A stretch of DNA of 49,704 bases from a virus (lineage: Duplodnaviria; Heunggongvirae; Uroviricota; Caudoviricetes), in the IMG/VR virus record IMGVR_UViG_3300020049_008481; one strand, given 5' to 3'. The position numbers and the translations under genes are program-made. The notes under the pieces were generated by a model. It was not told where the DNA came from. It made no database searches and was given only the letters and a program-made list of their open reading frames with translations. Of the stretch, positions 15,763-23,922 are shown one piece after another (the stretch's first letter is position 1; every line of letters starts with the position of its first letter).

Positions 15763-16544
15763 GCTTTTGCGCTTTCAGTATAAGCTTTTAGAAGCAACTC
15801 ACCCATAACAAATTCCCACTGACGAGCGTCAAGATAAGGAGCAGCCTGTTCGGCCATTTCGTATGCAGCCTCAGCTTCAACCTGATGTTCTTTTACAAGT
15901 TCACTGATTGACCTAGCCTCAGCATTATTCCATCCAGGTCTAGTCGGGGGAACAATTAAAGCGCCAGCTAAAAAGTGAGGATTTTCTAGATGCCTTACAG
16001 AAACATGGGCCTGTAGGTGTTCACAATATGTTGCACTATCAGCACCGACATATGGGAAAGATTCCATACATCCGTTCTCACCCTCACATATGATGTTCTT
16101 AGCTATAGTTTCCATACTAAAGAATAAGCTCCCGGCTGCGTCAGCAGCTTCAATAGCTGCCAGTTCTTTAGGAAAGTAGAAAGACCAAAAGGCAGCTAGA
16201 GCTTCAATGTAAGGATTAAAAATACCGCTCTCGGCTGCAGCATCCAGAGGGAACACCATATCAGTGGCCACGAAAGACCCGACAATGCTTCTAGGATTAT
16301 GAAGCATGTTTAGGGGTGCATGGTCAATGGTCGGCTGACTCATCTCTAGATCGGCCATAGTGAAGAATTGCTTGTTCTGGTTAGGATTGTCGGCCTCAAC
16401 AAACTTACCGAGAATCCATTTCATAGCAGGGTTGTGTTTTACAAACTTCTCTGCCCAAGCCTTATCAATAGAGGTATCTAGAATATGAGCCTGAGCACCC
16501 ATGAAAAAAGAATTCTTACCTTCAATAACCACTGACTCACTCAT
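15759..16544 (-). CDS. Putative prohead maturation protease (261 aa)
   Basis: Between portal and scaffold; APLNMLHN and FFSME segments compatible with His/Ser protease motifs. Confidence 0.55.
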   Translation of the reverse strand: MSESVVIEGKNSFFMGAQAHILDTSIDKAWAEKFVKHNPAMKWILGKFVEADNPNQNKQFFTMADLEMSQPTIDHAPLNMLHNPRSIVGSFVATDMVFPLDAAAESGIFNPYIEALAAFWSFYFPKELAAIEAADAAGSLFFSMETIAKNIICEGENGCMESFPYVGADSATYCEHLQAHVSVRHLENPHFLAGALIVPPTRPGWNNAEARSISELVKEHQVEAEAAYEMAEQAAPYLDARQWEFVMGELLLKAYTESAKA

Positions 16545-18169
16545 TATTTCTTACCTTTCGGAACCGGAGCTTTATTAGATGTGAAAGAATCAGGGTTTGT
16601 GCCGCCCTTGTTTCTACCTTCTGCTTTAGGATCGACAGGTTTAGAATCTTTTTGATCAACAGGCTGGTCAGTATTAACTACGCCAGAATAAGGAACCGTA
16701 GTCGGTACGAAGATTTCATCGTATTCTTCAGACTCACGCTTACGCTTACGTGCCTCATTGTCCTGGTCATAGCCAACTTCATCAAGAGTTGTTTCACGAG
16801 AAATGTCACCACGGTCACGAAGTTGCTGGATGTAACCGATGATGGCCGGGTCAAGAGCAAGAGCAATTCTCTTCGGGTGGAACTTGAGTTCAGACTCCGC
16901 AGTAAGCGAGTCATTCATCTCAAATGTTCTTTTAATAATCTCTTTAGTGACCTTCTCAACTAAACCGTCACGGCGGGACTCTAGACCTCTAGCCACAATT
17001 TTAGCTAACTTAATAGAATCATCAGTCTTAGTTCCTGAACCATTCTGGCCAGACAGGAACAGGCCAAGCAGCCTGCCTTCAATCTTTGAATCAAGTAGAT
17101 TATGACGTTGTGGATCTAAAGTATGATCACTCTTAGGTGTGATGATTTCTATTTCTAAACGGTGGTCTGAAATAATGATAGGCACACGTGCAACCTGCTT
17201 CACTTGAGCACCTAAAGCAGCAAGCTCCTGAGCTTTAGCGGGACGTTCATCCGAACCCTTTTTCACAAGGATGATGAAAGAAGTAGATCCGATAAGGACT
17301 GCCCTATCCATCGCCCTAAGCTGGTTCTTTAAATCAAGAAGCTCAAAGACTGACTTCATGCGTACAGGGGAGAATTTTTGATACGGCGGACGTGTCTCAC
17401 CATATCTCCATACCCTATCAGACAGCAAGAAGATGTCATTAGCTGGGAGTCCCTGGTCGGAAAGCTTCTGTCTCTCTAGATTGCTGGGATTATATTCATC
17501 AATGATCATCGCACGAACAGTTAAGTCATTTATATTGCCACTAAGGACATTTCTGAAAGCTTCAGCTTCCTGAGGGTCCGCAATATAGACTAGCTGCTCT
17601 TTCCCGAACATGAAGTTACCGACAGGCATAACTTTAGTGGGGTCCAGTAGCGTGATCCCCTGTGGGACTTTAAGATTAAATACTTTCTTACGTGAAACTC
17701 CACTAGAAGACTTGCCTCTAACCTTAAAACTCTGGGACCCCCACCATGTGAAAGCATAGAACTGGCTGACTGTAAAAAGCTCACGCCACATCTCTTTCAG
17801 GCGCATGTTTAAGTCAATATTCTCCGCAATCTGATTCCAGATATCTTCCTGATCTTCATCATCAGCCTCAAAGTCTAATGTGCCGAAAGCCAGACTCTCA
17901 GACATTTCGCACACGCCTGAAACAATATCATCGGATTCAGCAGCCTTAGATGCCATCCTGAACTGATCAAAGATGTTATCAGGAGTCTTATATTTATCCC
18001 GAGCAAACATAGATCCGCTACCCTGCTGGACAGACTGCGCCCAATGGGCCAACGCTCTATACTCAGGGTGATCTTTACCTAACTGGCCAAAAACCTCTTC
18101 ATTCGTAAAGTCTGTTTCGTTGAAAACAACACCATTAGAGTCGGACCAAGGAATAGTTCCAATATCCAT
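16544..18169 (-). CDS. Portal protein (541 aa)
   Basis: Size and position after terminase; LDPTKV/P-loop-like segment and helical C-terminus. Confidence 0.78.
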   Translation of the reverse strand: MDIGTIPWSDSNGVVFNETDFTNEEVFGQLGKDHPEYRALAHWAQSVQQGSGSMFARDKYKTPDNIFDQFRMASKAAESDDIVSGVCEMSESLAFGTLDFEADDEDQEDIWNQIAENIDLNMRLKEMWRELFTVSQFYAFTWWGSQSFKVRGKSSSGVSRKKVFNLKVPQGITLLDPTKVMPVGNFMFGKEQLVYIADPQEAEAFRNVLSGNINDLTVRAMIIDEYNPSNLERQKLSDQGLPANDIFLLSDRVWRYGETRPPYQKFSPVRMKSVFELLDLKNQLRAMDRAVLIGSTSFIILVKKGSDERPAKAQELAALGAQVKQVARVPIIISDHRLEIEIITPKSDHTLDPQRHNLLDSKIEGRLLGLFLSGQNGSGTKTDDSIKLAKIVARGLESRRDGLVEKVTKEIIKRTFEMNDSLTAESELKFHPKRIALALDPAIIGYIQQLRDRGDISRETTLDEVGYDQDNEARKRKRESEEYDEIFVPTTVPYSGVVNTDQPVDQKDSKPVDPKAEGRNKGGTNPDSFTSNKAPVPKGKK

Positions 18170-18172
18170 TTA

Positions 18173-18565
18173 TTATCCCCTTGAAACTTCCCATTCCATC
18201 TGACGAACAGATTGGAATCTACTCCATACTTTAAACTGGCGATCAACCTCTTCAATGAAAGGATCAATCTCTTTAGTTCTAAAAGCAGTGTATTGTCTAG
18301 TTTCAGTCCTAACTAAAGCTAGGCGAATCTCGTTGGCTCTAGCAGAAAATGCAGATAAGGACATGAGAATAGTTTCACCGTCATTAGACGGGAATTGCTT
18401 CATTGCTACATAGAAATTATCAATCTCTCGTCTCCAAGCTGCTACAGCCGAATCCACGGAAGCCCGACTAGATGTATGATTCGGCTGTGCAGTTGGGGCT
18501 ACGGAGAGTCCACCATTTAAAGTTGGAGTTCTAGATACCGTAGTACCTTGTAAAGTTAAAGTCAT
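18173..18565 (-). CDS. Hypothetical protein (130 aa) between terminase and portal
   Basis: Clean ORF with its own putative late promoter. Confidence 0.6.
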   Translation of the reverse strand: MTLTLQGTTVSRTPTLNGGLSVAPTAQPNHTSSRASVDSAVAAWRREIDNFYVAMKQFPSNDGETILMSLSAFSARANEIRLALVRTETRQYTAFRTKEIDPFIEEVDRQFKVWSRFQSVRQMEWEVSRG

Positions 18566-18572
18566 ACATAGT

Positions 18573-18600
18573 TATTCGGAGTTACTATGAGTTTAATTTA
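18573..18600 (-). promoter_or_regulatory. Putative sigma28/WhiG-type late promoter
   Basis: TAAA-N16-TCCGAATA, 7 nt before ATG 18565. Confidence 0.55.
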
Positions 18601-19575
18601 GTAGAGGAAGATGTCTAACACAGGCTCGTCCGGTTCTTTCATGTTCGCTGCTATTTGATCCGTGATATGTTGAACATATCCAAGGACAGCCATACGAGCC
18701 GCGTCCAGAGCGTGGAAAGAACCGCCAGAGAAAGTTTTCTTGCCATAAATATTCATATTATCTTTGATAATAGTATACGTTTGCCCCTGGAACTCTCCAA
18801 TAAGTTCGCTATCCCATGGCAATGTGATTCTTTCATTGTCAACAAAATCTCTAAGAACGTCAGAAGAATACTGTAAAACATTTTTCATCATTGCGGTCTC
18901 AGCTATCGGATCACCAAAATCCTCATCAACTTCAATAGTTGAATCAAATCCAGTAAGAATCTTTTCAGAGAAGTTGTATCCTTTAATTATCTTCGCATAC
19001 TCAGGATATCTAGTCTGCAGGTCAGAGAACAAGGGCAAGCCCAAGCCAGTCTTATCCATAGCAAAAGCAGATAAACCATACTCTTTAATGCAATGAACAA
19101 TGGCATCAACTTGGGCAGGATGTGAAAGACGTTCCATATGGATACGAGTTAGTAGAGTTAAGTGAGGATCTTCACCTTTCTTGGCGGGACTTTCTGCAAA
19201 TATAAGAATCTCGGAAGGATGGTTCGTGAAACCCACGTCCATGCCAGCCCAAAAACGCTTACCCATCTTTTTATGCTTACGATTAAAATCTAGATAAAAT
19301 TCTACATTTCCGCCAGTATCTCGCAACATATCATCATTAACACGAATGTACTGATAGATATTTTCATTATAATCAGCATCATTAGGATTTTTCCTGTGCT
19401 CACCAGCGATGCAATTATGAACTAGAATGGGGGTTTCGCCAACATAAAAACTAGGATGATTAGATACCGTCAGGTCGTAACATTTGACATAATCTTTTCC
19501 ACCACTGAGTCTAGTGAATTCCTCACTTCCTCGTTCGAAAATCTCAATACTTTCCACCCTTGGGAAGTTAACCAT
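18598..19575 (-). CDS. terL: Terminase large subunit, C-terminal (nuclease) fragment with N-terminal split-intein C half
   Basis: WAGMDVG RNase H-like motif and FHALDAARMA C-terminal motif; first 54 aa end in ILVHN followed by Cys. Confidence 0.88.
   Translation of the reverse strand: MVNFPRVESIEIFERGSEEFTRLSGGKDYVKCYDLTVSNHPSFYVGETPILVHNCIAGEHRKNPNDADYNENIYQYIRVNDDMLRDTGGNVEFYLDFNRKHKKMGKRFWAGMDVGFTNHPSEILIFAESPAKKGEDPHLTLLTRIHMERLSHPAQVDAIVHCIKEYGLSAFAMDKTGLGLPLFSDLQTRYPEYAKIIKGYNFSEKILTGFDSTIEVDEDFGDPIAETAMMKNVLQYSSDVLRDFVDNERITLPWDSELIGEFQGQTYTIIKDNMNIYGKKTFSGGSFHALDAARMAVLGYVQHITDQIAANMKEPDEPVLDIFLY
19414..19575 (-). mobile_element. Split intein C-fragment (54 aa)
   Basis: VESIEIF...CYDLTVSNHPSFYV...ILVHN|C = intein blocks F and G; own ATG with AGGT SD-like sequence. 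Confidence 0.85.
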
Positions 19576-20561
19576 ATGTCTTTCAACCTATCTTTCTCTT
19601 TAACCTTAGATTCCTTATGTGAATCTCCATCAATTTCTACATCTATCTTCTGATACGTATTAGCTAGATCCATAAATCCATGGCTAATGCCATCGACTTG
19701 ACCCATTGGAGACCACCATTTCTCTGGCTCCCAATTACTCCCTAACGCATTCCATAATGCATATTGCTCTTCAGACAATCCACCACGTGCAGCTTTTGAT
19801 GGTATAGCAAATTTGATCTTAGTAGGTTTCTTAATTCTTGATGTGTAACTACAAGACTTTGAACAAAACTTTTGATTGGAACCCGGCACAAATAAATTCT
19901 CACAAAACTCATACTTACATGTTTTGATGCAAAGTGTAGATGGTCTTTTATTAGCACATGTATATGAACAAAACTTTACTTTCTTAGACGTTCTGTAAAA
20001 TTCTGTACCACATCTTTCACAGTTCTTAAGCTGCCTGACCAAGCCAATTCGAGGCATCACCTCTCTAGCATTCCACTTACTACAACAATCCAAGGAACAG
20101 AACACTTTATTTCTTATATCCTCAATCTTTTCACCACACTCTTTACACAATCTCAATTCTTTTCTGATAGGAGCACGATGGTCATACGCACATTCAGTTG
20201 AACAGTATTTCAACTGATCATTACCATTTAATGGTAATTTGCAATTCAAACATTGTGGATACCTTAGTCTAACTCTTTTTGACTGTGCATTGCAGCCAAT
20301 ACTACAGAATTTCATCTGGCCCCCTGTTAGTTGATCACCACAGTTTTGGCACTCTGAAAAACGCTTCGCTCTGGCCTTAGCGTCCCTACACCACATCGAA
20401 CAGAATACTTTCCCTCTCCCGAGAATAGCTTTACCACACTCTTTACATCTTGGTTTACTACTCAATGACTCTATTTCTTTGAAACCCTTCATGCAAGATT
20501 TGCTGCAAAATCTCTTGGCTCGGCTCTCCTTCGAAATTTGATTCCCACAATGTTCGCACAT
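19470..20561 (-). CDS. Vsr/DUF559-like endonuclease with seven N-terminal zinc-finger repeats
   Basis: Seven C-x2..4-C...[FY]CS-x2-C repeats; DVEIDGDSH...D..KD.WL..QGWKVLRFSNEEV; probable ATG 20561 (frame open to 20675). Confidence 0.85.
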   Translation of the reverse strand: MCEHCGNQISKESRAKRFCSKSCMKGFKEIESLSSKPRCKECGKAILGRGKVFCSMWCRDAKARAKRFSECQNCGDQLTGGQMKFCSIGCNAQSKRVRLRYPQCLNCKLPLNGNDQLKYCSTECAYDHRAPIRKELRLCKECGEKIEDIRNKVFCSLDCCSKWNAREVMPRIGLVRQLKNCERCGTEFYRTSKKVKFCSYTCANKRPSTLCIKTCKYEFCENLFVPGSNQKFCSKSCSYTSRIKKPTKIKFAIPSKAARGGLSEEQYALWNALGSNWEPEKWWSPMGQVDGISHGFMDLANTYQKIDVEIDGDSHKESKVKEKDRLKDIWLTSQGWKVLRFSNEEVRNSLDSVVEKIMSNVTT

Positions 20562-22719
20562 CTTCTGGACCGTAGAGGTAGTCACCTGGGAGTAATTCTT
20601 GGGCTTCGACCCATCCTCTGTCTGTGAAGATTCTGTGGTCGGGTGTGCAGTATAATTCATCTCCATTGATAACAATTTTACATAGCCTTTCGTGATGTGA
20701 TTCTATATTTGCTAAGACAGTTCCGGTTCCTGAAGCATTCTTAACCGTACTACCTACTTCGACATCTTCGATCGGTAATGTAATATCTTCACCATTCACA
20801 TCTACATGGACAGAGGTTCCCTCGAAAAAACAAAGCATGAGTCTTGCTAAAACAAACAGTGGGCTGCTCGCGTCCCCGTGGTGTCCACCAACGTTTCTCC
20901 TGTAGTCTGGGGAATTTCTACTGCCATATTGTTTAATCTTTTGCTGCCGTTCAACATCAGTCCAGTTTGGACGACTCATTGCAGAATATTTATGGACTTT
21001 CCAGCCAGAATCCGGTTGGGTAAACTTATAGAAGTGGTCTCTCACCCCTCTCGTCACACCATGTGCTCTCCAAATAGAACCGGGGGTGCCAGACTTAAGA
21101 GTCTCAATTATCTCGGTCCATCCGGGGGCCGGATAATCTTGCGACTCATCCTGTTCCAGCCATAAGGGGTGCGTATTGTGACTCATAACGCCATCTGAAA
21201 GATATGAATGATCCTCTGAAATAATATTGTAAACAGTTTGAACACCAGCAGGTTCAACCGATCTAATTTTATAGTGCATAAAATAATCTGTCTCATACCC
21301 ATCACCGTGTTTATTTAAGCGCACACGGTAAGAGTCAAATGGCTTTTTCTTTAATTTGACACCATTAATTTCTTTCACTTTAATATCTACTACCGAGTAA
21401 CCAACATGATATCCCAAGGTCGCACCGATAGTACCAATCCCCATAGCTAGTTTTTTAGATGCGGAACCTGCAGATATTCTATCCTGTGTCCCATGAAACG
21501 TGGAATTCCCATCACCCGAAAGATACCCTTCTAGCAGGGCACGTCGAAACTCTTCTTTCATTGTGAAACAGAATGTTGGAATTTCTTTTCCATCGGCATT
21601 TTTACCGAAGTATTTTTCAAGCCACGTTACAACAGCAGCAGATGAAAACCCAATCCTATCAGCAGAAGAATGTGCTCGTTTAGTCACATTATAATTCCAG
21701 TTAAGTCTATTCAGATGTCTAAATACTATATTTTGATCTTTAGGATGTACAAATAGATCGACCCTTCTCTTAGGCTCTCCCTTTAAGCCAGACAAACACC
21801 CATCAGCCAAATATCTACCAACTAACCACCAAAAAGATTCTGACTCGCAATTTCTAATAGTGTTATTCTTATTACCACTAAAATCTGGATAAACAACTTC
21901 TACCTCATCAAAAGATTTAGGGGAAGACCAATATGAGTTTATTGGCGAATACTTAGATGACGATAGATTGTTAACCCGTTCCCATTTAAGTGGACCTAAA
22001 TCTCGTTTAACTTTACCTGGCATCTTTGAAACATCATTTCGGACATAGAAACCATGTCCTTCAGAAACTCCTTTTTCAAAAGACCCCTGGCCTTTAACCC
22101 TAAACGTTTCAGCCTCAAACGACTGCACGGCAGCTACTTTGGACCAACGGTTTTCATGCGACCATACATAATCGTCTGTAGTAACATCCTGGATGAACTT
22201 CCAACCGCTAACTCTAGTTAAAACTAATGTATACTTTATCTCGCAGCCCTTAATCCCAGATCCATCCCTCTGTGGGATACGACCTAGGATACGTGCCCCA
22301 TTTAGGAAATTCATTTCAAAAGGCCTATGGGTAATGCCATTACCTGCCCGTTTGGGTAACATTTCCCTACCCATTCGAGTGGTTTTAAAACGTTTTTCCA
22401 CCAACCCGGTAATCGGTTGTAAGTGGTTTAGCTCGGGGGCTGTTATAACCATTTCTTGACCAGGGTTTACAAACGGGAAAGCAAATGCCCTCAGCGTAAT
22501 ACTTACCGATTTACCAAGTGATCTAGCTAGTTGTTCAATTTGAAGTTGAGAAGTATCGTTATACCATTTCCACTGAAAAGGCCAGGCACGCCACAGTCCG
22601 TTAGGAGATTCCACTCCTTCGTCAGTCCAAAACATTTCAGCTTGATCAATCCCACTTTCGTCAGCCAGAATGCAGGCAAGATAGCATTCTTCCTCAGTAA
22701 GATCCTCTAGAACTGACAT
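20458..22719 (-). CDS. terL: Terminase large subunit, N-terminal (ATPase) fragment with cis intein and split-intein N half
   Basis: Walker A-like ARSLGKS, TAPELNHL, Walker B WLEQDE; two intein starts (CEIKY, CFFEG); ends TAG TAA. Confidence 0.88.
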   Translation of the reverse strand: MSVLEDLTEEECYLACILADESGIDQAEMFWTDEGVESPNGLWRAWPFQWKWYNDTSQLQIEQLARSLGKSVSITLRAFAFPFVNPGQEMVITAPELNHLQPITGLVEKRFKTTRMGREMLPKRAGNGITHRPFEMNFLNGARILGRIPQRDGSGIKGCEIKYTLVLTRVSGWKFIQDVTTDDYVWSHENRWSKVAAVQSFEAETFRVKGQGSFEKGVSEGHGFYVRNDVSKMPGKVKRDLGPLKWERVNNLSSSKYSPINSYWSSPKSFDEVEVVYPDFSGNKNNTIRNCESESFWWLVGRYLADGCLSGLKGEPKRRVDLFVHPKDQNIVFRHLNRLNWNYNVTKRAHSSADRIGFSSAAVVTWLEKYFGKNADGKEIPTFCFTMKEEFRRALLEGYLSGDGNSTFHGTQDRISAGSASKKLAMGIGTIGATLGYHVGYSVVDIKVKEINGVKLKKKPFDSYRVRLNKHGDGYETDYFMHYKIRSVEPAGVQTVYNIISEDHSYLSDGVMSHNTHPLWLEQDESQDYPAPGWTEIIETLKSGTPGSIWRAHGVTRGVRDHFYKFTQPDSGWKVHKYSAMSRPNWTDVERQQKIKQYGSRNSPDYRRNVGGHHGDASSPLFVLARLMLCFFEGTSVHVDVNGEDITLPIEDVEVGSTVKNASGTGTVLANIESHHERLCKIVINGDELYCTPDHRIFTDRGWVEAQELLPGDYLYGPEDVRTLWESNFEGEPSQEILQQILHEGFQRNRVIE
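20461..20832 (-). mobile_element. Split intein N-fragment (124 aa)
   Basis: CFFEGTSV (block A), CTPDHRIFT (block B TxxH), GWVEAQELLPGD, then acidic tail and stop. Confidence 0.85.
21175..22245 (-). mobile_element. Cis-splicing intein with LAGLIDADG homing endonuclease (357 aa)
   Basis: G|CEIKY...VMSHN|T; WLVGRYLADG and LLEGYLSGDG dodecapeptide motifs; inserted just before Walker B. Confidence 0.92.
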
Positions 22720-22723
22720 TTAA

Positions 22724-23275
22724 TTATTTAACCCCTTCAACCAGCTTAGTGTAAAACACAATGCTGGACTCTGGATACTTTACTAAAACATCAAACAGCC
22801 AGCTAGTCACGTAATAGATTCTATACTCTAAAAAGAAGCTAGGAGCCTTCTTAAACCCTTCAGCAATAGATTCCATCTGAGCAACAGTAGGTTCCGCTCC
22901 ACGTAATAGCTTATACACCATATTTCTATCTAACTCTGTAGTGGCTGCAACGTGCCGGATAGACCTGTTTCCACACATGGCTTTAAACGTCTCCGTAAAT
23001 GGTCTTTCAGAATAGTCTTCACCGATTATTTGGCGATACCTTTTAGAAGCTTCCCCTTCATCTAGAGAGGGGCGCTTACCGGGCTTACCTGTGGATGGCC
23101 CGCCTATCTTAATGATGTCATTGATGATTCTACCTGCAACTACTGGGTCAAGGTCGAATACTTTATCCCACTTTAATGAGTCTATGGACGGATAATTGGA
23201 ACGTATTTTCTCAGCAGTTATCTTCCACTGAGTTTTTCTGTCAGTTGGGACAACATCGATTATAACGGGGTCCAC
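22724..23275 (-). CDS. Cro/C1 (XRE)-type HTH protein
   Basis: SIRHVAATTELDRNMVYKLLRG...PTVAQMESIAEGF. Confidence 0.72.
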   Translation of the reverse strand: MDPVIIDVVPTDRKTQWKITAEKIRSNYPSIDSLKWDKVFDLDPVVAGRIINDIIKIGGPSTGKPGKRPSLDEGEASKRYRQIIGEDYSERPFTETFKAMCGNRSIRHVAATTELDRNMVYKLLRGAEPTVAQMESIAEGFKKAPSFFLEYRIYYVTSWLFDVLVKYPESSIVFYTKLVEGVK

Positions 23276-23277
23276 TA

Positions 23278-23922
23278 TTAAACCTCTCTAATCCAGAATT
23301 TTTGCTGATGGGTTTGGAAGTAAAGATCCACTTCCCTGAACTCTGGTAAGAATGTGCCTTCAATCCACTCAAATAGACCGTCTAAGTCGATACCACCTTC
23401 TTCGGATCTTTCTTCCGGTGTGCATCTCTGATACAAGCCATATAGGTGGTCAAATTCATTGAACAGGATAAGTGATTTGGTTAGTTGTTTTTCACGCATA
23501 ACCCCAAATTCTTTAGCCCTAAGTCGCAAATTAGCAAGGTAGTCAGGTACAGACTCGCCCTTTTCTTTCTCTCGGGAAGGCTTATCTAAACCAACACTTT
23601 TCTTAACTAGCCTAATCTCTTGGCTATAGTCTCTGATAGTCTTCTTAAGGTTATCAAGATCAACTGGTTCACCGAAATAGTCCCGCTCTAGAGACATCCA
23701 CAAACTCCACCGCCACACCATTAGCTCCATGAACAAGATCCTGTCAATGTCCTGTAAATCGGTTACGGCAGAGAACCTGTTTTCAGACATGTATCTACTA
23801 GATCTATCTTTTACATACTCCACCTCATCAAATGTTAGAACCTGCAACGCTCCACCGGAAGGCAAATCAACACTAAATGGGTGTTCGCCTTCTAGGTATT
23901 CTTCAATGCTATTTGTGCTCAT
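23278..23922 (-). CDS. Putative terminase small subunit (214 aa)
   Basis: Helical ORF heading the terminase operon; function from position. Confidence 0.5.
   Translation of the reverse strand: MSTNSIEEYLEGEHPFSVDLPSGGALQVLTFDEVEYVKDRSSRYMSENRFSAVTDLQDIDRILFMELMVWRWSLWMSLERDYFGEPVDLDNLKKTIRDYSQEIRLVKKSVGLDKPSREKEKGESVPDYLANLRLRAKEFGVMREKQLTKSLILFNEFDHLYGLYQRCTPEERSEEGGIDLDGLFEWIEGTFLPEFREVDLYFQTHQQKFWIREV

Follow-up and report, generated by a model that had tools for sequence, protein, structure and literature searches.

In a metagenomic viral contig assigned to Caudoviricetes, the predicted large terminase gene terL is very probably a true fractured gene, whose two halves would be joined by protein trans-splicing, which carries a homing endonuclease gene between these halves and which would have originated from an unbroken intein. 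The contig is IMG/VR record IMGVR_UViG_3300020049_008481; its full 49,704 nucleotides (nt) were analysed and are called the window hereafter. We infer on good grounds that the halves are spliced in trans and that the endonuclease is active in homing. A more detailed history has about an even chance of being right: split inteins would have been born at least twice, independently, at one TerL site from an unbroken parent with an endonuclease overprinted in the +1 frame, an invariant Trp codon acting as a pre-adaptation and a single stop turning splicing in cis into splicing in trans. Fractured genes, and the combination of a split intein with a Vsr-like endonuclease, are already known. What is new here is an endonuclease that overlaps both intein halves, in a locus that is the split counterpart of an intein with an overprinted endonuclease.

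All genes of the region lie on the minus strand. Two open reading frames (ORFs) that share one frame, frame 0, encode the TerL halves, and a third, shifted by +1, encodes the endonuclease. The features are the following (aa, amino acids; IntN and IntC, N- and C-terminal intein halves; slashes mark splice junctions):

22719..20458, minus strand: TerL-N ORF, 753 aa, made of 158 aa of extein 1, 357 aa of intein 1, 114 aa of extein 2 and 124 aa of IntN
22246..22719, minus strand: first part of the TerL N-extein (aa 1-158), an ATPase domain whose Walker A motif, ARSLGKS, is T4-like
21175..22245, minus strand: intein 1, 357 aa, LAGLIDADG type, CEIKY...VMSHN/T, just before Walker B (GIKG/THPLWLEQDE)
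20833..21174, minus strand: TerL extein part 2, 114 aa, from Walker B to the ATPase-nuclease hinge, ending ...FVLARLML
20461..20832, minus strand: IntN, 124 aa, CFFEG..., with TPDH as block B; an 84-aa Hint core ends in ...LLPGD, and a tail of 40 aa follows
20460-20458 (TAG) and 20457-20455 (TAA), minus strand: double stop after IntN
20675..19470, minus strand: endonuclease ORF in the +1 frame (22719 - 20675 = 3 x 681 + 1), with stop TGA at 19472-19470
19470..20666, minus strand: putative free-standing homing endonuclease within that ORF, +1 frame, open from 20702, intact, 398-401 aa
19851..20558, minus strand: seven C4 zinc fingers, CxxC-x8-14-CxxxC, counted by regular expression, the presumed DNA-recognition module
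19482..19688, minus strand: Vsr-like/DUF559 (EDxHD-type) nuclease domain, VEIDGDSH...D...D, from Pfam DUF559
20458..20666, minus strand: 5' overlap, in which the IntN tail (frame 0) shares its DNA with the N-terminus and the first zinc finger of the endonuclease (+1)
19470..19575, minus strand: 3' overlap, 106 nt, last 35 nuclease codons over first 35 IntC codons
19575..18598, minus strand: C-half ORF, IntC of 54 aa followed by 271 aa, in the TerL-N frame (22719 - 19575 = 3 x 1048)
19414..19575, minus strand: IntC, 54 aa, MVNFPRVESIEI...YDLTVSNHPSFYVGETPILVHN, blocks F and G, ending ...ILVHN/C
18598..19413, minus strand: TerL C-extein, 271 aa, with +1 Cys, RNase H-like nuclease domain with conserved GMDVG, MDKTG and FHALDA

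The original prediction, made without database searches, had placed the 124-aa IntN with its TAG TAA and the 54-aa IntC in two ORFs of one frame, and all its coordinates and counts for them are correct. Gene annotation of the locus is incomplete. The database protein for the C half of the window (P0001, 243 aa; 18598-19329, minus strand) is called from an internal Met (MLRDTGG...), and consequently the IntC and 28 extein residues are unannotated in the window's database record.

The nature of the host gene had to be established by fold search, because sequence libraries were nearly silent. Pfam gave no terminase match for either half or for intein-less homologs, and a hidden Markov model of 36 intein-less homologs found no match among Protein Data Bank (PDB) sequences. 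The PHROG family phrog_5909 (terminase large subunit) was matched at values from 3e-6 (for the C half) to 6e-10. On the other hand, an AlphaFold model of the intein-less homolog P0002, built from the 36-sequence alignment (pLDDT 81; predicted local distance difference test), matched the fold of T4 gp17 (E 6.7e-17) and of the HK97, D6E and Sf6 large terminases, the four lying at E 1e-13 to 1e-17, as well as isolated ATPase domains and isolated nuclease domains. The modelled fold thus identifies the host as a large terminase, with an N-terminal ASCE ATPase and a C-terminal RNase H-like nuclease. The C half, used as a database query, retrieved hundreds of intein-less homologs of 528-551 aa, in agreement with the proposal that the 158 + 114 + 271 = 543 aa remaining after removal of both inteins make a TerL of normal size. 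The split intein is inserted at the ATPase-nuclease hinge, between x and C in ...FVLxRLMx/CVD... (intein-less consensus RLMxCVD); the exteins join without a gap onto the intein-less homologs at RLMx/C, and Walker A and B together with the nuclease motifs GMDVG, MDKTG and FHALDA are present across the two halves.

The split intein has the motifs of class 1, namely C1, TPDH, YDLTVSNHPSF (block F) and LVHN/C, and in all aligned alleles Cys1, [T/S]xxH, block F, HN and the +1 Cys are kept. The Pfam family Intein_splicing was found at 8.7e-6, under its cutoff. Compared with the PDB, the IntN profile has gp41-1, itself a split intein from a fractured gene, as its nearest solved intein (6qaz, E 6.9e-12), and the IntC profile gave no convincing intein match. 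A predicted complex of IntN and IntC scored 0.55, with 0.00 for the best control, which the tool grades as weak support: 58 of 80 solved complexes pass its mark, as do 2 of 110 mismatched pairs, and scores of 0.60 or less comprise just 7 of the 80 solved complexes yet both passing mismatches. At least 89% of the contacts agree among the three prediction runs, with a partner pLDDT of at least 68. Since solved split inteins exist, the pass may reflect likeness rather than binding. As counted in the original prediction, IntC contains 8 acidic and 5 basic residues, but the new orthogonal pair that this acidity was taken to suggest does not follow from it: in gp41-1 the N-terminal portion of IntC is net acidic as well, and since an acidic IntC is not unusual in this class, charge alone is no argument for such a pair. 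The alignment with gp41-1 runs into the IntN tail, so the tail was considered as a mimic of an IntC strand; this was rejected as low-complexity acidic similarity.

Relatives were collected by a database search with the C half, by a search with extein 2 plus IntN, and by IMG/VR scans with endonuclease and IntC alignments. The C-half search returned eight independently called proteins of 322-342 aa whose N-termini align residue by residue with the window IntC. DNA was taken for five of these metagenomic loci, which come from different samples and are 40-60% identical (L001, L002, L003, L085 and L086); their C halves share 43-52% identity with that of the window. All five share its layout: a TerL-N ending in an IntN, then an intact zinc-finger/DUF559 ORF in the +1 frame that overlaps the IntC start, which has an unchanged position in all of them. 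The 3' overlap of 106 nt is identical in L001, L003, L085 and L086, and longer in L002, where the endonuclease ORF extends 14 further codons. Megablast of the region against a phage collection gave no match; a search of sequencing runs listed a wastewater metagenome as the only match, with a 0.05 share of words, and no RNA run.

Might the locus be an ordinary bifunctional intein, with its endonuclease truly in frame, that indels in assembly or sequencing have disrupted? The original prediction had raised this alternative, and the frames invite it, since IntN and IntC share one frame, the endonuclease is exactly +1, and two compensating indels would restore a single long ORF. However, the same +1 offset and overlaps occur in six independent assemblies from different samples, the endonuclease was never in the host frame among the relatives examined in an intein context, and in unbroken relatives (see below) it is the host frame that runs on into the exteins, rather than that of the endonuclease. 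We therefore give the indel explanation hardly any credence. The layout is confirmed to be beyond chance and no assembly artefact, as the frames are alike in six independent assemblies.

The endonuclease agrees with its earlier description as an out-of-frame protein with seven C4 zinc fingers and a Vsr/DUF559 domain. Pfam DUF559 covers residues 330-398 (1.5e-14), and the nuclease domain is matched to PDB 3hrl by sequence at E 1e-3. In an AlphaFold model, the C-terminal domain matches the DUF559 protein 3hrl (probability 1.0, template modelling score 0.70) and the catalytic domain of I-Bth0305I (3r3p, probability 0.97), and the N-terminal region weakly matches tandem zinc-finger arrays. Residues E344, D346, H350, D359 and D363 are invariant in the alignment. 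Intact same-frame orthologs are found in L001-L009, L085 and L086, with a variable number of fingers: the window, L003, L004 and L006 have a long form, and L001, L002 and L005 a short form with fewer. The start of the gene is less certain than originally proposed. The window offers ATG 20666, ATG 20660, TTG 20675 and ATG 20561; the last had been chosen, yet no split relative has an ATG at that position, whereas at the position of 20666 an ATG stands in L001, L002, L003 and L085, with a Shine-Dalgarno-like motif before it in L001-L003. In related loci that have listed gene calls, the endonuclease ORF is uncalled.

Both junctions are dual-coding, as had been claimed from overlaps of about 100 nt (from ATG 20561) and 106 nt. 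The 3' overlap is indeed 106 nt; the 5' overlap amounts to 104 nt from ATG 20561 and 209 nt from ATG 20666. At the 3' junction, alignments show the nuclease C-terminus and the IntC N-terminus to be each conserved. At the 5' junction, frame 0 of the four split loci analysed (the window and L001-L003) runs on after ..GD until a first stop at codon 40, 48, 51 and 34, respectively, far later than the median of 8-9 in synonymous shuffles (P 0.0016, 0.011, 0.005 and 0.041), so that no fewer than 34 aa of IntN tail have been kept over the first zinc finger. The IntC ATG of the window is formed by the last base of an Ile codon and the TG of the nuclease's invariant Trp codon (D..W). All split alleles start IntC with ATG or GTG; since several unbroken ones have such a codon as well, it is no marker of the split state. 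A strong Shine-Dalgarno motif, GAGGTGAG or AGGAGA, precedes the IntC start in L001, L002, L085 and L086.

The search with extein 2 and IntN revealed a second form of the locus: seemingly whole TerL proteins, 879-1317 aa long, with 175-325 low-complexity residues that connect IntN to IntC and show a periodic EVLL/EVLF motif. The DNA of L004, L005 and L006 reveals the linker to be a TerL-frame reading of the zinc-finger endonuclease gene; within this stretch, the +1 frame has the endonuclease ORF intact. To compare the two forms, frame-0 stops were counted from the end of the Hint N part (..GD) to the IntC motif RV[D/E], and the expected number was obtained by permuting synonymous codons in the endonuclease frame. 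The split alleles of the window, L001, L002 and L003 have 40, 23, 21 and 31 stops, for 39.4, 25.9, 18.7 and 33.5 expected. Since these counts equal the chance expectation, frame 0 is truly abandoned in the split alleles; in the window, its 40 stops fall in 340 codons, and the open host frame of the unbroken form is absent. By contrast, the unbroken L004, L005 and L006 have no stop at all, where 5.9, 13.1 and 15.8 are expected (P 6e-4, <5e-5 and <5e-5). In these three, T never occupies the third position before AA, AG and GA codons (0/64, 0/48 and 0/102).

IMG/VR scans extended the unbroken geometry to L008 and L009 at this TerL site, to two distant TerL alleles (L056 and L057) and to dozens of loci in other phage genes, encoding SF2/UvsW-like helicases, a clamp-loader ATPase and SNF2-like helicases. 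The five unbroken same-site alleles L004, L005, L006, L008 and L009 have 0 stops versus 5.7-15.8 expected (P 8e-4 to <5e-5). Beyond L004-L006, 19 unbroken loci, with 29-67% guanine plus cytosine, all lack frame-0 stops, against 2.4-17.7 expected (P <= 0.002 in 18 and 0.057 in L011). Besides the same-site alleles, the loci with an open host frame comprise 17 in other host genes. In the split helicase loci L020, L028 and L042, on the other hand, stops match the expectation. L019, with 19 stops versus 29.0 expected (P 0.003), is uncertain as to its class, split or unbroken.

These counts also bear on another way of joining the frames, in which programmed shifts of +1 and -1 would lead ribosomes through the endonuclease frame, or on excision of the intervening segment from RNA in the manner of an intron. 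Geometrically a frame switch would be possible, as both junctions are long overlaps and the endonuclease frame is open well upstream of the first zinc finger. However, relatives under selection keep frame 0 free of stops all through the endonuclease, which would serve no purpose if ribosomes switched out of it, and the 40 stops of the window equal the unconstrained count. Moreover, every split allele has an ATG or GTG at the IntC start, most of them with a Shine-Dalgarno motif, and the nearest frame-0 stop of the window lies two codons upstream of the IntC ATG. As for RNA excision, an Rfam scan of 18000-23500 found no family at E <= 1, group I and II introns included. Recoding, which the original prediction had kept as an alternative, and RNA excision are thus very improbable. 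A scan for promoters and terminators gave no more sites than shuffles do, and none between the three minus-strand ORFs.

The split alleles appear to be no single group. In endonuclease trees, the window and L003 are sister to the unbroken L004, and L001 and L002 are sister to the unbroken L005. Such an arrangement requires two or more changes of state. Forcing the four split alleles together was rejected by the approximately unbiased (AU) test (p-AU 0.0033, with two outgroups added), a value to be read with reserve because the group was named after the first tree had been seen, 11 alleles were used and some branches, those of two rows, are long. We read the split state as derived, since the loss of 20-40 stops without damage to the endonuclease is far unlikelier than the gain of one stop followed by decay. 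A double derivation of split alleles from unbroken dual-coded inteins, its direction being drawn from parsimony and a small tree, is therefore plausible. We also tried to date the split by the frame-0 stop positions common to the window and L003, and rejected this approach, as these positions are dictated by endonuclease codons.

Several observations weigh against a functional fractured gene of this origin. The window comes from a metagenomic contig with an estimated completeness of 55%. Its Shine-Dalgarno motif before the IntC ATG is weak (TAGGT, 11 nt upstream), and it is without the motif that split relatives carry before the conserved endonuclease ATG. Since IntN and IntC are both net acidic, no simple charge complementarity backs their association. 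Finally, the direction from unbroken to split relies on the parsimony of stop gain versus loss, together with a small tree. The weak IntC initiation signals and the metagenomic source would also suit a two-piece terminase held together non-covalently, with the intein halves as a dimerisation module, or a gene on its way to a pseudogene in a defective phage. Phage NrdA is said to be a known case of a fragmented enzyme that assembles without splicing. Yet the splicing residues are invariant among IntN alleles that are just 32-56% identical, which is unexpected if the chemistry were dispensable; the halves keep Walker A, Walker B, GMDVG, MDKTG and FHALDA, and the split state persists in two separate lineages. 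A two-piece enzyme or a decaying gene is thus unlikely. The anatomy, the conservation and the gp41-1 match support the fractured gene, with its split intein flanking a Vsr-like endonuclease, that the original prediction proposed.

If terL is such a fractured gene, it would give rise to two polypeptides, TerL-N, composed of the ATPase, the cis-intein and IntN, and IntC-TerL-C, carrying the nuclease. Intein 1 would splice in cis. IntN and IntC, as the two parts of a class 1 intein that is akin to gp41-1 and divided at the canonical endonuclease-insertion loop, would associate and splice in trans, joining ...ARLML to CIAGEH... at the ATPase-nuclease hinge and yielding the 543-aa TerL. The endonuclease presumably cuts the intein-less terL of co-infecting phages, and repair would copy the whole IntN-endonuclease-IntC cassette. 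As to its origin, the split allele most likely descends from an unbroken intein of the same family, with the endonuclease overprinted in the +1 frame and the TerL frame held stop-free. A stop would then have arisen in the TerL frame, IntC would have started at the [A/G]TG on the nuclease's invariant Trp codon, and the frame would have been free to decay. Since this Trp codon supplies the TG of [A/G]TG just where IntC must begin, many unbroken alleles would be pre-adapted to such a change.

Comparison with known systems shows both what is shared and what is specific. Fractured genes were defined by Dassa, London, Stoddard, Schueler-Furman and Pietrokovski (2009, PMC2677866), who described eight host types, terminase included; the statement in the original prediction that fractured genes with Vsr-like endonucleases are known from phages is thus borne out, and a terminase host was already listed. 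Like the window, their loci have a phage context and two host ORFs on the same strand, with IntN ending the first and IntC beginning the second, as well as a Vsr-like endonuclease ORF between the halves whose 3' end overlaps the IntC start. However, their terminase locus has an atypical split with a 122-aa IntC, whereas the window is split at the canonical loop. In their set, a non-coding spacer of 27-51 nt precedes the endonuclease, the 3' overlap is 6-69 bp and IntN is 88-105 aa long; in the window, the endonuclease overlaps IntN by 104-209 nt, the 3' overlap is 106 nt and IntN has 124 aa. Furthermore, unlike theirs, the intein allele of the window also exists unbroken with an open host frame.

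Among solved inteins, gp41-1 (PDB 6qaz, 6riz) resembles the window in its split after a ...G-x-x-L/Y strand and in the acidic N-terminal part of IntC; it differs in having a helicase, not a TerL, as host and in being without a 40-aa IntN tail. The gp41-1 IntC, of about 37 aa, is not known to have the loop RGSEEFTRLSGGKD, which in the window is co-encoded with the nuclease C-terminus. AceL-TerL, which Thiel et al. are said to have described in 2014, is reportedly a natural split intein in a metagenomic phage TerL, with an IntN of about 25 aa and a long IntC. In contrast to this geometry, the window has the canonical one, with a long IntN and a short IntC.

The Vsr-like endonucleases became the EDxHD family, with I-Bth0305I as prototype (Taylor et al. 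2011, PMC3239194). The window endonuclease is similar to it in the C-terminal Vsr-like fold, the conserved E, D, H and D, and the context of a phage mobile element; I-Bth0305I, for its part, is encoded by a group I intron, and its N-terminal DNA-binding region has no C4 zinc-finger array. Non-canonical inteins, with an endonuclease in another frame or on the other strand, have been reported recently (bioRxiv 10.1101/2025.01.02.630785), and a cyanobacterial dnaX intein likewise (bioRxiv 10.64898/2026.09.14.751524). In the 2025 preprint (10.1101/2025.01.02.630785), Vsr-like endonucleases are antisense only, and the out-of-frame type (frame 3) is endonuclease VII-like. Our unbroken relatives (L004-L009 and many others) are like these inteins in that the host frame is stop-free through a separately framed endonuclease. 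On the other hand, the Vsr-like gene of the TerL family is on the same strand in the +1 frame, unlike the antisense Vsr-like type of the preprint, and the window itself, whose host frame carries 40 stops, falls outside the non-canonical class.

If true, the change from unbroken to split would be a route to split inteins other than the direct-invasion model of Dassa and colleagues, and the alleles would make up a naturally occurring set of matched counterparts, cis and trans, of a single intein. Since split and unbroken alleles are matched at one site, with chance-level and zero stops, respectively, the origin of split inteins becomes directly testable. Natural split inteins are prized protein-ligation tools of which few families are known; here a gp41-1-related pair of canonical geometry sits in an essential packaging enzyme, with several diverged orthologs for comparisons of speed and orthogonality. 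The locus also matters for annotation, as gene callers missed the endonuclease and the IntC start.

Outside these comparisons, the loci L010-L036 and L056-L084 have Hint N in frame 0, a DUF559 endonuclease in +1 and a Hint C that starts about 100 nt before the endonuclease stop. Their hosts also include unidentified genes. Nearly all of these loci are unbroken and have no stop in the host frame; one helicase group has split versions (L020, L021, L027, L028 and L042). In L072 and L074 (3337-3600), the +1 ORF is reduced to 87 aa by decay of the endonuclease and the host frame is open, which looks like a step from an intein with an overprinted endonuclease towards a mini-intein.

The TerL family is an intein hot spot, with insertions at five or more sites. 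The window (21175-22245, minus strand) and L001 both carry a LAGLIDADG intein immediately before Walker B; the endonuclease of this intein 1 belongs to Pfam LAGLIDADG_3, and the site-matched allele in L001 is 39% identical. L003 (2731-5100) and L055 (3369-5504) carry an intein inside Walker A (GK/A...THN/S) that starts with Ala, and L002 (3496-5544) has one at a third TerL site, HRY/C...VHN/T. In L055 and P0131, an intein lies within the nuclease domain, after GMDVG[W/F]. At 3495-3502 of L055, the IntN of the split intein, with its tail, and the matching IntC meet with no endonuclease gene, and the IntN TAG overlaps the IntC ATG (ATGAGTAG) in another frame; GGGGTGG stands upstream of this ATG. 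L055 has a split intein that lacks an endonuclease, or else a mini-intein in which the assembly contains an error of 1 nt. In the locus of P0018, a further split relative, an HNH_3 gene (194 aa) lies directly upstream of a 399-aa TerL-N gene and may represent a further endonuclease that was inserted into the N-terminal portion of terL.

The neighbours of terL in the window (16544-18565 and 22724-23922, minus strand; ORFs of 541, 130, 183 and 214 aa) have no PHROG match. Judged from its position, the 541-aa gene downstream of terL probably encodes the portal, and the 183-aa gene upstream, with helix-turn-helix matches in relatives, may encode the small terminase.

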